Part shown: piece after piece, positions 1,141-10,051 of the stretch
Position numbering within the stretch: the stretch's first letter is position 1
How the letters are laid out: each line of letters begins with the position of its first letter
From: Candidatus Tyrphobacter sp.
GTDB lineage: Bacteria; Patescibacteriota; Minisyncoccia; UBA6257; Colwellbacteraceae
Assembly (NCBI GenBank): GCA_035532135.1
Contig: DATKRQ010000041.1
Location: 1 to 28,846 of the forward strand
Direction: 5' to 3'
DNA length: 28,846 nucleotides
Program-made: the position numbers and the translations under genes
The notes under the pieces: generated by a model
Told to the model about the DNA's origin: nothing
The model's input: only the letters and a program-made list of their open reading frames with translations
Databases searched by the model: none

Positions 1141-1461
1141 ATGAACGAAGAATTAAAACAAAACGTAATCAAAGGGTTGGGACTGGAATTATTAACGCCC
1201 GATCAACAGGAAGATGCCCTGGATAAAATAGGCCGCCTGATCTACCAGGGGACGCTTGAGCGAGCGCTCGAAAGATTGAGTGATTCTGACTTGGATGAAT
1301 TCGAAAAGAATTTTTCCGGCGATAACGCTGATCCGGAGGCTGTTATGAGATTCCTTAAAGACAAGATTCCCGACCTTGACCGGCTTACGGAAGAAGAAGT
1401 CAAAGACTTTCGCGACAAAACTGCTGATTTTCTCTCTAAAATTAGCAACACCGCTCAATAA
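1141..1461 (+). CDS. Small acidic helical hypothetical protein (resembles the DUF5663-type proteins of CPR)
   Basis: ATG-started 106-aa ORF with pattern LGLELLTPDQQEDALDKIGRLIYQGTLERALERL. The family name is from memory and was not checked. Confidence 0.6.
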   Translation: MNEELKQNVIKGLGLELLTPDQQEDALDKIGRLIYQGTLERALERLSDSDLDEFEKNFSGDNADPEAVMRFLKDKIPDLDRLTEEEVKDFRDKTADFLSKISNTAQ

Positions 1462-1464
1462 TTT

Positions 1465-2055
1465 TTGAACGTGCCTGACGAAATCGAGCTTCTTAAAAAG
1501 GAAATCGAGCGGTTGAGGAAGCTGGCTTACAAAGACCCGCTCACTGGTTCTTTCAACCGGCGGGCCCTGATTGAGGAGGCGAACCGGATAGTCAAGGCGG
1601 TGGAGAAGTCGGAGATAGTTCATCATCGCCGCCGAAAATTCTATTTGAGCGCCTTGAGCGTCATTTTCTTGGACATCGACGATTTTAAGAAGCTTAACGA
1701 TGAATACGGCCACGAGGCGGGCGACGCGGTATTAAAGAAAGTAACCAGGCTTCTCGAGAACCACCTGAGGCAAAGCGACATTGTGGCTCGTTGGGGCGGC
1801 GAGGAATTCGCCATCGTCCTTTTGGGCGCCAACGTCGACGACGCGATGAAGGTGGCCGAACACTTACGGAGCGAAATCGAGAAAGCATCGATTACTTTCC
1901 GGGGAAAAAAATTAAAGATTACCGCCAGCTTAGGCGCGGCGGAAATCGAGCCAGGCGACGATTTGGGATCGCTCCTCAAGAAAAGCGATCAGGCGATGTA
2001 TGCCGCGAAAAAAAGCGGGAAGAATCGGGTTGTCAAATTCCCTCATTTGGACTAA
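1465..2055 (+). CDS. Diguanylate cyclase (stand-alone GGDEF domain)
   Basis: Motifs DPLTGSFNRR, DIDDFKKLNDEYGHEAGD and ARWGGEEF, with I-site RQSD. Start is TTG 1465 or GTG 1471. Confidence 0.95.
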   Translation: MNVPDEIELLKKEIERLRKLAYKDPLTGSFNRRALIEEANRIVKAVEKSEIVHHRRRKFYLSALSVIFLDIDDFKKLNDEYGHEAGDAVLKKVTRLLENHLRQSDIVARWGGEEFAIVLLGANVDDAMKVAEHLRSEIEKASITFRGKKLKITASLGAAEIEPGDDLGSLLKKSDQAMYAAKKSGKNRVVKFPHLD

Positions 2056-2086
2056 GTTGGAGAGGTTGATTTGTCTGAATTTCTTG

Positions 2087-2122
2087 GGAGGGGTCGCATA
2101 GCGGCCTAGTGCGCGCGCTTGG
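2087..2122 (+). repeat. Exact 36-bp duplicate of the tRNA-Ser(GGA) 5' half (to anticodon position 35)
   Basis: ggaggggtcgcatagcggcctagtgcgcgcgcttgg is identical at 2087-2122 and 2408-2443. Confidence 0.97.
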
Positions 2123-2156
2123 CCACCGCTGAAGCGGGGTTCCGCCGGAGGCGGAA
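2123..2156 (+). repeat. Two tandem GC-rich hairpins (REP/MITE-like)
   Basis: cc-a-ccgc-tgaa-gcgg-gg (2123-2139) and perfect ttccgcc-gga-ggcggaa (2140-2156). Confidence 0.8.
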
Positions 2157-2167
2157 AAAGCGAGATT

Positions 2168-2422
2168 ATGGCGTATTATGTTTATATAATTCAGAGCAAG
2201 AAGACGGGCCGCTATTACATCGGGCTGACGTCTGACATAGAAGAAAGATTACGGCACCATAATAGCGGCGCGAATAAATCGACTAAAGGTCGCGGCCCGT
2301 GGGTTCTGATTCACAAGGAATTATATAAGACCAAGAGAGAGGCTTGGGAGCGCGAACGTCAGATAAAAAGCTATAAGGGCGGCGAAGCATTTAAAAAATT
2401 AATCGATGGAGGGGTCGCATAG
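2168..2422 (+). CDS. Small GIY-YIG nuclease (UPF0213/YhbQ-like)
   Basis: YVYIIQS...YYIGLTSDIEERL..HNSG...WVLIHKE...EAWERERQIK carries both GIY-YIG halves and the conserved Arg and Glu. The last 15 nt overlap tRNA-Ser. Confidence 0.92.
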   Translation: MAYYVYIIQSKKTGRYYIGLTSDIEERLRHHNSGANKSTKGRGPWVLIHKELYKTKREAWERERQIKSYKGGEAFKKLIDGGVA

Positions 2423-2492
2423 CGGCCTAGTGCGCGCGCTTGGAAAGCGCGTATACCGAAAGGTATCGAGGGTTCGAATCCCTCCCCCTCCG
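2408..2492 (+). tRNA. tRNA-Ser(GGA)
   Basis: Acceptor ggagggg/cccctcc, anticodon arm cgcgc-ttGGAaa-gcgcg, long variable arm tatacc-gaaa-ggtat, T-loop ttcgaat, discriminator G. CCA not encoded. Confidence 0.97.
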
Positions 2493-2867
2493 CATATAGA
2501 AACTTCACGATTTTTCAGAGCCGCGCCGCTTCGCGGCGTTAGTGTGGGGGGAGCCGCAAATAAAAATGATAGGAAATTTTTGGGTTTTGCCCCGCGCGAG
2601 TTTGTCGAGTGCGGCCGAGGCGCAAGTGTCATTCGTCAAAATCCTGCGGATTTTGTCCGAAATACATTCGAACTTCGTCCAATACACACCGCACTTCGGT
2701 AAGCTCAGTGCGAGCACTTTGGAAAATTAGCATAAGCACTTTGGTTCGTAGTAGCCGACCTTCGCTAAATTCAGCCACTTTTTCGGTTCAAACTTCAGGG
2801 TGTCGTTCCTGTCAATCGGAGAAAATGATAGAATTGAGAGGAGAATTCTATCGAATTAACTAAATTT

Positions 2868-3873
2868 ATGAGACGCACGACAAATGTGTTTCTTGCTATT
2901 CCAATCATCATTGGGTTGTTGTATTTTCAAGCGTGGCCGACGCTGGCAGTTTCATTGAACTGCCTTACGCCAACTCAGGTTAAACAAGAGATCCAATCTA
3001 TCGAAGATGAGACTAATAATCAAGTAAGCCAAATCAAAAGCGAGTATGCGGCCATTGCTCAACAAGAGCAATCTAACACCAACGCCAACCTTTGGGCGTC
3101 TGGAATAGCTGGGAGTGGGACTGCGGCTTCGCAGATGTCAAATACGGAAACCGGAGTCATTTCCCAAGAGAGCGCTGCGATAGCAGATGCGTATTCTAAC
3201 GAACTCAATCAAGAAAACGAGATACGCAATAAAGTGTGTGGCGTCGAACAAAATGTGCAGGTGCAAGATAATTATTTATGTTCGAACGGAGAGGTGTCTT
3301 ATAACAACACGTGTATGGCTAAGTCGCTTTATGATATCGCATATTGTCGGCAAAAATATGGGCCAAGTTATACTTACTACGCAACAACTAATGTTTGTGT
3401 ACTAGCCTACTGTCCACCAAATTCCACAATGTATCAGTCTGGTTGTTGGTGTGACAAGGGATACGTGTGGAATAGTAGTTAGCCTTGCCTGTATAGGACC
3501 ACAGCGGGCGCCAGCTTCTATATTTAGCACTACAACGAGTGGAAGATCGGACAATGTGTATCAATCGAATATTCAGAAAACTTACCTCCCAACAACACCA
3601 ATAGCAACGCCTAAAACACAAATTACTACCCAAATAGGTAGGTGGGGTAAGAATGATCAATTCAAAAATGGAGTTAAACAAACAACCATCGGTGGAGTAA
3701 TGTCTAAGGGTTCGCTATCAAGTCAAGTAAATAAAATTGGAATAATTTCTGAGATACCAATTAATACTAATGTCAATATATCGCGTCCTGTATCGGATAA
3801 GTCACTAAGTATAATATCAGAAGCAAACGCTTTCGTTAGCGGACTTATGAGTAAGTTAGCTAGCCTTCTCTAG
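2868..3873 (+). pseudogene. Secreted Cys-rich (EGF-like repeats) protein split by a frameshift near 3480 (ORFs 2868-3482 and 3451-3873)
   Basis: N-terminal signal-like segment. GCWCDKGYVWNSS stops at TAG, but removing one base gives ...WNSSSLACIGPQ in the second ORF, completing the Cys motif. Visibly AT-richer than core genes. Confidence 0.65.
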
Positions 3874-6067: not shown

Positions 6068-6124
6068 ATCGGATATCTTACACCAAAAAGCACCCGGAAG
6101 ACGATCGGGCGCAAGTTTATTTTG

Positions 6125-6197
6125 TCCACCCACCAGGGCTCGAACCTGGGACCGTTTGCTTAAGAGGCAACTGCTCTACCAACTGAGCTATGGGTGG
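6125..6197 (-). tRNA. tRNA-Lys(CTT)
   Basis: Minus strand ccaccca-tagctcagttggtagagca-gttgc-ctCTTaa-gcaaa...ccagg-ttcgagc-cctgg-tgggtgg-a. Confidence 0.95.
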
Positions 6198-7346: not shown

Positions 7347-7525
7347 TGTCCCCGGCAGGAATCGAACCCGCAACCTCTTGGTTCCCCGCCTGCCTTTGCC
7401 GTGCCCCCGGAGGGACTCGAACCCCCAATGATTGCTTCGAAGGCAACTATGATATCCATTTCACCACGGGGGCAAATTACGGCGGGCAGGGAAGCCAAGC
7501 GCTCTATCCGTTGAGCTACGGGGAC
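7347..7525 (-). tRNA. Interrupted tRNA-Arg (joined anticodon most simply TCG): 5' half 7491-7525, 3' half 7347-7384, 106-nt insert at 35/36
   Basis: Halves gtccccgtagctcaacggatagagcgcttggcttc and gaaccaagaggttgcgggttcgattcctgccggggaca join to a 73-nt cloverleaf with A20, C35 and A73 (Arg identity). The exact junction is slightly ambiguous because of C/G runs. Confidence 0.88.
7402..7473 (-). tRNA. tRNA-Arg(TCG), intact, nested inside the interrupted tRNA-Arg
   Basis: gcccccg-tg-gtgaaatggatatcat-a-gttgc-ctTCGaa-gcaat-catt-ggggg-ttcgagt-ccctc-cgggggc-a (72 nt). Confidence 0.95.
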
Positions 7526-9036: not shown

Positions 9037-9107
9037 CGGGGTGTCGTATACCGGCAGTACGCACGCTTCGGGTGCGTGTAGACTGGGTTCGATTCCCAGC
9101 ACCCCGA
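9037..9107 (+). tRNA. tRNA-Pro(CGG)
   Basis: cggggtg/caccccg acceptor, cacgc-ttCGGgt-gcgtg anticodon arm, ctggg-ttcgatt-cccag T arm. Confidence 0.95.
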
Positions 9108-9140
9108 CACTTATGTGCCGCCCTCGACCGGAGTTTTCGG

Positions 9141-9977: not shown

Positions 9978-10051
9978 GGGCCTATAGTAAAACGGCATTA
10001 CGCAGCATTCGCATTGCTGAGGTCGGGGTTCAATTCCCCGTAGGTCCACCA
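9978..10051 (+). tRNA. tRNA-Ala(CGC), CCA encoded
   Basis: gggccta/taggtcc with G3:U70, anticodon arm cagca-ttCGCat-tgctg, ends acca. Confidence 0.95.

Follow-up and report, generated by a model that had tools for sequence, protein, structure and literature searches.

In fungal mitochondria, mobile open reading frames (mORFs) of the Allomyces atp6 type encode an endonuclease and bring a replacement gene end into the essential gene that they enter. Among GIY-YIG nucleases, SsnA is a single-domain protein of 94 amino acids (aa) that acts on single-stranded DNA (ssDNA) only, binding a directional hairpin and cleaving the DNA a few nucleotides upstream of it (PMC11893778). Ssn genes are flanked by hairpins, in a hairpin-gene-hairpin layout that resembles an insertion sequence (IS) (Chenal et al. 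2025, PMC11893778). The gene for SegB of phage T4 is inherited preferentially, through cleavage of the allele that lacks it and repair from the allele that bears it (PMC2330249). Here we analyze a locus in a 28,846-nt stretch of Candidatus Tyrphobacter sp. (Patescibacteriota; contig DATKRQ010000041.1, positions 1 to 28,846, hereafter the window), where a small GIY-YIG nuclease gene, preceded by a double hairpin, lies between a truncated and an intact copy of a tRNA-Ser(GGA) gene. An earlier note made from the letters of this stretch, which we call the original prediction, had taken the arrangement for a minimal selfish element.

We consider it probable, at roughly 60%, that this locus belongs, as one copy, to a large family of minimal selfish cassettes resident in tRNA genes. 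Two parts make up such a cassette: a single-domain GIY-YIG nuclease of ~80 aa from the Slx1/UPF0213 lineage, and a hairpin module that is short, conserved and GC-rich. One tRNA copy is intact and working, and the other is usually a truncated spare that carries the hairpin module in its D-loop or its anticodon loop.

The cassette and its empty site

The spare copy and the intact tRNA (Table 1) share an exact direct repeat of 36 nt, located at 2087-2122 and 2408-2443 with a spacing of 321 nt, just as the original prediction had it. The spare copy stops after the second anticodon base, which is canonical position 35, and is followed at once by the double hairpin, in which hairpin 1 reads CCA-CCGC-TGAA-GCGG-GG and hairpin 2 reads TTCCGCC-GGA-GGCGGAA. 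The tRNA then resumes with AAAGCG, which closes the remnant of the anticodon stem, and five bases separate this hexamer from the start of the open reading frame (ORF) at 2168. Judged from the sequence, the upstream piece is a copy of tRNA nt 1-42 with a clean 34-nt insert between canonical positions 35 and 36. As ssDNA, 2117-2166 is predicted to fold into a three-way junction that the anticodon-stem remnant closes (-13.8 kcal/mol, z -2.8). At the other end the ORF runs into the intact tRNA: its last five codons (G-G-V-A-stop) are nt 1-15 of that gene, and the stop codon TAG, at 2420-2422, falls within the D-loop region.

The source assembly (491 kb in 68 contigs, ~95% complete) contains 39 tRNAs, and tRNA-Ser(GGA) is present in a single copy; hence the intact downstream copy is the working gene. 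No integrase, transposase or recombinase is encoded inside the 321-bp unit, and no recombinase was found nearby either, so that the minimal cassette with one intact tRNA that had been claimed is what we observed. An Rfam scan of 1900-3000 gave the tRNA alone above threshold; the sX4 match, at 40.6 bits against a gathering score of 70, overlaps the tRNA. A sigma-70 promoter scan of 1950-2750 returned no site, and no convincing terminator was seen there. The hairpin motif occurs once in this genome, at the nuclease gene, and we therefore rejected the idea that it is a high-copy miniature inverted-repeat transposable element (MITE).

Evidence for gain or loss of the unit came from relatives and from populations. 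In relative G013, a member of the same family, the same GGDEF gene is followed directly by an uninterrupted tRNA-Ser(GGA) (locus L005). Of nine tRNA-Ser(GGA) loci inspected in a search of 40 relatives, eight were unoccupied, and the ninth, in G021, contains a D-loop variant of the cassette. For the population check, Logan contigs of three soil-metagenome runs (X1, X2 and X3) were placed on 1400-3200. Contigs of all three runs join 2086 directly to 2408, skipping 321 nt, and traverse the GGDEF gene. One of them, the 889-nt record 4 of X1 (depth 6.3), covers 1879-2086 and 2408-3088 with 0 mismatches. A second strain, represented in X2 and X3 (records 9 and 16) and carrying 5-9 single-nucleotide polymorphisms (SNPs) in the GGDEF gene, is also empty. 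Over the cassette interior, X1 and X3 had a depth of 0, and X2 yielded a single 151-nt contig (2275-2425, 0 mismatches), which spans the junction from ORF to tRNA at a depth of 2.6, compared with 8.0 for the empty form; a separate index search with the cassette interior alone returned X2 as the only run.

The same haplotype thus exists with and without exactly the 321-bp unit, the register of which is ambiguous inside the 36-nt repeat (2123-2443 is equivalent). Presence and absence at an otherwise identical site in close relatives, as in free-standing homing genes, is therefore found here, and the empty allele sought by the original prediction is present both in G013 and in the population, with identical flanks. 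Because the more distant strain and G013 are both empty, the filled state is the derived one. Either the unit was recently inserted, or its recent insertion has since been followed by repeated deletions between the 36-nt repeats.

Table 1. Coordinates and annotation of the locus, in window positions
Feature	Position	Strand	Basis or remark
GGDEF diguanylate-cyclase gene	1465..2055	+	PF00990, E 1e-42; left flank, outside the element
Present/absent unit, 321 bp	2087..2407	+	Joint 2086->2408 in contigs of runs X1, X2, X3
Spare (dead) tRNA-Ser copy, nt 1-36	2087..2122	+	100% identical to 2408-2443
GC-rich double hairpin, 34 nt	2123..2156	+	Clean insert in the anticodon loop of the spare copy; DNA fold
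Spare tRNA copy resumes, nt 37-42, AAAGCG	2157..2162	+	Tracks own tRNA in other anticodon-class loci
GIY-YIG nuclease gene, 84 aa, single domain	2168..2422	+	PF01541, E 1.2e-17
Intact tRNA-Ser(GGA)	2408..2493	+	ARAGORN; Rfam tRNA, 53.9 bits

The four other tRNA genes of the window are without a cassette: Lys-CTT (6124-6197), Arg-TCG (7401-7473), Pro-CGG (9037-9108) and Ala-CGC (9978-10051). Elsewhere, tRNA-Pro(CGG) and tRNA-Lys(CTT) are partners of related cassettes.

A second indel was observed at the 3' end of the same tRNA-Ser. This is a 199-bp non-coding segment (window 2490-2688) flanked by 5-nt CCGCA repeats, and it is missing from the contig of one strain (X3 record 16, joint 2489->2689). 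The segment is single-copy in the genome of the window and has no Rfam match, and mine-drainage contigs cover it at a depth of up to 58. The core of this segment (2526-2695) has two inverted counterparts of 95% identity in relative G037, and G003, G004, G024 and G035 contain it in part. The inverted ~170-bp copies of G037 (L186:434-601 and L186:7095-7265; G037:C11) bracket a 6.4-kb block that encodes a DNA methylase (PF01555), a type III restriction Res subunit (PF04851) and two unknown ORFs. A mobile restriction-modification island may have the ~170-bp element as its terminal inverted repeat, in which case the window contains a solo copy of it.

A cassette family in tRNA genes

We collected loci with relatives of the nuclease, 80 from species-representative genomes and 65 from metagenomes. 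A tRNA gene lies at most 60 nt from the ORF in 71 of the 80 genome loci, downstream in 56 and upstream in 15; a tRNA also adjoins the ORF in 34 of the 65 metagenome loci, including all 22 in which the nuclease is at least 49% identical to that of the window. The adjacent tRNAs are on the same strand as the ORF in every case (71 + 34). With ~39 tRNAs per 0.5 Mb, the adjacency expected by chance is well under 1%, and the arrangement of nuclease and tRNA is thus far beyond chance. The ORF stop is inside the tRNA in 36 loci, with the same offset as in the window in 22, and the commonest partner is tRNA-Ser(GGA), found in 31. The association of such nuclease genes with duplicated tRNA parts and hairpins, proposed earlier as a check, therefore holds overwhelmingly among the homologs.

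The family is very common in the Candidate Phyla Radiation (CPR)/Patescibacteria, and variants occur in Bacteroidota and other phyla. In an even sample of 301 genomes of the phylum, the nuclease family was matched in 212 (E<=1e-8), with up to 14 copies in one ~1-Mb genome, and the ORFs are mostly intact. Identical architecture was observed in dozens of independent assemblies, including complete contigs of more than 500 kb.

Seventeen other loci carry a spare copy broken at the same point as in the window, after the second anticodon base. In 11 of the 17, one of them at a tRNA-Pro(GGG), the copy up to this point is exact over 35-36 nt (L016, L017, L026, L027, L041, L044, L046, L064, L066, L074 and L090). 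The bases behind the hairpin match the local tRNA from nt 37 onward in 18 other copies of this anticodon class, from the same 17 loci, and read AAAGCG, AAAGGC or, in tRNA-Pro(GGG), GGGGCGT. Mostly the resumed stretch is 5-8 nt long; in L064 and L090 it extends to nt 47, and in L027 and L044 to about nt 66. Since the bases behind the hairpin track the tRNA of each locus, AAAGCG is not a chance match, as had been considered possible, but real tRNA sequence. This also changes the picture of a hairpin, gene and 5' half inserted together at position 35: the clean break after position 35 stands, but the hairpin is a discrete insert, beyond which the spare copy continues.

The hairpin module is inserted cleanly, without target duplication. 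In the anticodon class, 19 further copies from 17 loci, 18 of which could be parsed into both hairpins, gave the consensus YTGG|CCA-CCGCC-N3-GGCGG-GG|TYCCGCC-N3-GGCGGRA, in which the stems are conserved in sequence and the loops variable. One pair of hairpin 2 covaries, being T-A in the window and 4 other loci and C-G in 12. Insertion into the anticodon loop, as first claimed, was therefore confirmed for the window and the 17 other loci, but it is not the only site. A second fixed breakpoint was found in the D-loop, after nt 14, in 10 further loci, where the tRNA resumes at nt 15. The module at this site, related to that of the anticodon class, is YCACCGCC-N-GGCGGGR-CCCCGC-N-GCGGTGG, and the spare copies are Ser and Tyr tRNAs. 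The D-loop-class locus L029 is at the same place as the tRNA-Ser(GGA) locus of relative G021 (L006).

Other arrangements were also seen. The tRNA-Pro loci of Bacteroidota and some further loci have a spare copy whose D-arm or anticodon arm has given way to a single hairpin, CCCCGCC-N4-GGCGGGG, and in Bacteroidota full tandem tRNA-Pro copies stand on both sides of the ORF. The junction between spare copy and ORF differs between loci, and some loci have the spare copy downstream or have three copies; in L019, L030, L032 and L092 a third, hairpin-bearing tRNA copy lies downstream of the intact tRNA, and in L022 the intact tRNA is upstream of the ORF. The layout common to these loci has a small nuclease gene flanked by copies of a single tRNA gene on the same strand; all but one of the copies are disabled by a signature hairpin in a cloverleaf loop. 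The spare fragments are mostly 100% identical to the working tRNA, even though the ORFs differ by 30-40% between loci, which implies rapid turnover or gene conversion.

In L021 (1378-1500), the D-loop and the anticodon loop of one spare copy each contain a double hairpin, and the two differ; in L019 (1845-1940) we read one module as nested in the loop of another. These inserts suggest that the modules target hairpin loops in general. Solo double palindromes of the form CCA-CCGCC...GCGG-TGG were noted in other genomes of the phylum, with neither a tRNA nor a GIY-YIG gene close by, in L164, L167, L173, L175, L178 and L180, at about position 1500 in each.

The nuclease itself matches the GIY-YIG family PF01541 with 64 bits (cut-off 22.6) and thereby belongs to the GIY-YIG superfamily. 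Residues Y6, Y17, R27, H31, N32 and E63 are invariant in 35 homologs, and many of these have the C-terminus G-[GRE]-[VIF]-A, which is what the first bases of a tRNA encode. The AlphaFold2 model (pLDDT 88) shows a bare GIY-YIG domain of beta-beta-alpha-beta-alpha-alpha topology. The top Foldseek match was the UPF0213 protein BH0048 (1zg2), with Slx1 nuclease domains at TMq 0.67-0.72 and I-TevI/UvrC at ~0.5, and a phmmer search against the PDB returned 1zg2 (4.9e-10), 1ywl (6e-07) and, weakly, Slx1. Both 1zg2 and 1ywl belong to the minimal bacterial Slx1-like group (Dunin-Horkawicz et al. 2006, PMC1564403); a stand-alone protein within the range of ~80-100 aa with these and Slx1 as nearest matches, the window nuclease belongs to the minimal Slx1-like/UPF0213 group as well. 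No NCBIfam family scored above its cut-off for the nuclease, and a plasmid collection contained only distant GIY-YIG matches (34-41% identity), which were uninformative.

In a maximum-likelihood (ML) tree of the nucleases (82 columns, poorly resolved), one clade unites 13 of the 19 anticodon-class loci, a second clade unites 5 of the 10 D-loop-class loci, and the Bacteroidota tRNA-Pro loci form part of a third. Among 500 label shuffles, clustering as strong as this was reached in 0 for the anticodon class and in 20 for the D-loop class. The clustering by hairpin and site class fits a co-evolution of enzyme and site, although relatedness alone inflates such counts.

The genome of the window has a second GIY-YIG gene, outside the window (L002:1399-1647, minus strand, equivalent to G000:C20:8990-9238). 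It is 26% identical to the window nuclease and frameshifted, and it starts ~40 nt downstream of tRNA-Gln(CTG) on the same strand.

Propagation and rival explanations

How the cassette propagates we infer by analogy. As in the Ssn system, the double hairpin would be the recognition module of the nuclease, which would break folded, single-stranded tRNA-gene DNA at the loop positions. A GIY-YIG hydrolase cannot rejoin DNA, so host repair would be needed. Host recombination would mend the breaks with the two flanking tRNA pieces as homology arms, and this repair would copy the hairpin, the gene and the 5' part of the tRNA into the cognate tRNA gene, leaving one tRNA intact. The conservation of tRNAs would make the arms usable in many genomes, for instance after DNA uptake, on which CPR bacteria depend in its natural form. 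In the reverse direction, the cassette would be lost and the site emptied again if the 36-nt repeats recombined with each other. The analogy suggests that the hairpin is a predicted binding site of the nuclease, the opposite of the protective role first put forward for it. Expression of the ORF probably starts at the tRNA promoter and proceeds through the spare 5' fragment, a prediction based on the lack of a detectable promoter of its own, the strict orientation and the shared stop codon.

Several points weigh against a family of selfish cassettes. The mechanism of cutting and transfer is drawn by analogy only. If the nuclease cuts naive tRNA genes, the intact downstream tRNA should remain a target, and no immunity feature was found at the occupied allele, where the intact tRNA is still there. 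Neither the window nor any of the 80 loci contains the hairpin motif published for Ssn (SRM). The tRNA is identical in the empty and filled alleles, so there is no co-conversion tract that would prove import. A near-identical donor cassette was not found either, the best ORF identities being 73% in a 5.8-billion-protein index, 70% in JGI metagenomes and 74% among the genome loci. The empty-allele contigs come from a k=31 de Bruijn graph across a 36-nt repeat, where an assembler shortcut is conceivable; the zero or low interior depth argues against such a shortcut but does not exclude one. Finally, palindromes like the double hairpin also occur alone, away from GIY-YIG genes and tRNAs, and the hairpin may move on its own.

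This last point leads to an alternative which we rate as unlikely, namely that the double hairpin is itself a tiny, seemingly autonomous mobile insertion targeting ssDNA hairpin loops (D-loops and anticodon loops of tRNAs, even loops of its own), which would have hit the spare tRNA copy, with the GIY-YIG gene spreading separately, by homing or tandem duplication, or acting only in trans on the hairpin. In the 301 genomes the double-hairpin pattern was found in 20, at 1-4 sites each, compared with 0 matches for a reversed control pattern, and about half of the sites sampled (~12 of ~22) are far from tRNAs and GIY-YIG genes. Such an insertion would also suit the hairpin-bearing tRNA remnants with no directly attached ORF (L032, L019, L092 and L030), the nested hairpins of L019, the copy in L021 that was hit at both sites, and the absence of target duplication. 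It does not lead one to expect that in about half of the 80 loci the hairpin stands ~10-40 nt upstream of the start codon in constant orientation, that nuclease clades correlate with hairpin and site class, or that the sole hairpin of the window's own genome adjoins the nuclease gene. The nuclease family is present in 18 of the 19 other hairpin-positive genomes, though against a baseline of already 70%; genome-level co-occurrence was therefore set aside as uninformative. Another account makes the nuclease a domesticated housekeeping gene linked to the tRNA, with a role in, for example, DNA repair or the upkeep of tRNA genes; gene and tRNA would be transcribed together, and the partial tRNAs would be decaying local tandem duplications rather than marks of mobility. 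Against it stand the presence and absence of the unit within one haplotype and the empty sites of most relatives, with another variant at the same tRNA in one of them. Furthermore, there are 1 to 14 copies per genome at many different tRNAs, the more distant gene beside tRNA-Gln in the same genome is frameshifted, and simple tandem duplication cannot yield a conserved hairpin at fixed loop positions. We thus hold this account to be improbable, even if strict co-orientation, tight packing against the tRNA, the shared stop and the missing promoter are what it would predict, as are a family present in 70% of the sampled genomes of the phylum, mostly intact ORFs, and the tandem full-length tRNA-Pro copies around the ORF in Bacteroidota.

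The two remaining explanations carry very little weight. Integration at tRNA genes is a classic pattern, and the islands found there are bordered by direct repeats of tRNA sequence, so that one could see in the locus the remnant of an integrase-type island or prophage whose attachment-site duplication survived deletion of the rest. The duplicated part is 5' and not 3', the polymorphic unit is just 321 bp long without a recombinase, the same minimal unit recurs in ~100 loci, and a conserved hairpin marks the breakpoint, all of which makes such a remnant very improbable; with neither a recombinase nor a 3'-part duplication, a tRNA-targeting island of the integrase type was rejected as a classification. 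A repeat-induced mis-join is a natural suspicion for a window taken from a fragmented, 68-contig metagenome-assembled genome (MAG) and for an interior with low or zero depth in runs that hold its flanks. It is hardly credible in view of the independent X2 contig, which crosses the ORF-tRNA junction without a mismatch, and of the same architecture in dozens of independent assemblies, complete contigs among them.

Relation to known systems

Our full-text literature search found no description of bacterial GIY-YIG cassettes with duplicated tRNA parts, and this widespread family of minimal nuclease cassettes resident in tRNA genes is apparently unpublished. If the proposed reading is true, the cassette would be among the smallest self-propagating DNA elements known, ~320 bp with one protein of 84 residues, with tRNA genes of ultra-small bacteria as its hosts. 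Most genomes of a huge phylum would contain it, at up to 14 per megabase, and it would account for many genes annotated as 'GIY-YIG nuclease family protein' and many broken tRNA halves in CPR annotations. It would also provide a natural function and substrates for minimal Slx1/UPF0213/Ssn-like nucleases, and new pairs of enzyme and hairpin for the toolbox of site-specific ssDNA cutters. To this the window contributes the polymorphism of empty and filled alleles in the same haplotype and a syntenic empty site in a relative, and the locus is a good test case, since the same haplotype is available with and without the cassette in public soil samples.

The Ssn system is similar in several respects. 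Each nuclease is a tiny GIY-YIG protein of one domain (94 aa for SsnA, 84 aa for the window), the catalytic Tyr/Tyr/Glu residues correspond (Y6, Y17 and E64 in SsnA; Y6, Y17 and E63 in the window), and each gene has short, directional, GC-rich hairpins physically coupled to it in an IS-like hairpin-gene(-hairpin) order. They differ in the hairpin itself: the SRM, HGTCWYN0-2YYVSBRHN0-5WNVSBRGN0-2RNCYNB, has no match in the 500 nt to each side of the ORF or in the 80 loci. The window hairpin is low-copy, with one per genome, whereas Ssn repeats number in the hundreds, and it is embedded in loops of duplicated tRNA genes, while tRNA goes unmentioned in PMC11893778. With the SRM absent, we do not file the window nuclease as a member of the Ssn family (cd10448).

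SegB shares with the window a stand-alone GIY-YIG gene among tRNA genes and a presence/absence polymorphism between close relatives. In contrast, the Seg enzymes are larger, have separate DNA-binding domains, cut double-stranded DNA and are encoded by phage genes, which make no tRNA half-duplication and have no hairpin module; the fold of the window protein is nearer to Slx1/UPF0213 than to I-TevI (TMq ~0.7 vs ~0.5). IS200/IS605 and REP/RAYT elements, discussed in PMC11893778, resemble the cassette in their small ssDNA hairpins, strand-specific clean insertion without target duplication, and minimal size, but their HUH tyrosine transposases both cut and rejoin DNA, and no tRNA is duplicated. 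With the mORFs the cassette has in common that one target copy is functional and a dead remnant lies beside it, but mORFs target protein genes in organelles, use enzymes of other classes or sizes, and have no hairpin module.

By analogy with these systems, the element would work like an Ssn nuclease and hairpin pair joined to the strategy of homing genes or mORFs, which carry their own replacement. A more far-reaching proposal, which we regard as tentative and rather less likely to be right than wrong, is that it represents a new class of minimal mobile element, in which a ~80-aa Slx1/Ssn-like nuclease and its cognate double hairpin would use ssDNA recognition at tRNA loops and tRNA homology arms to enter the cognate tRNA genes of unrelated genomes, duplicating part of the target so that the essential tRNA is kept.

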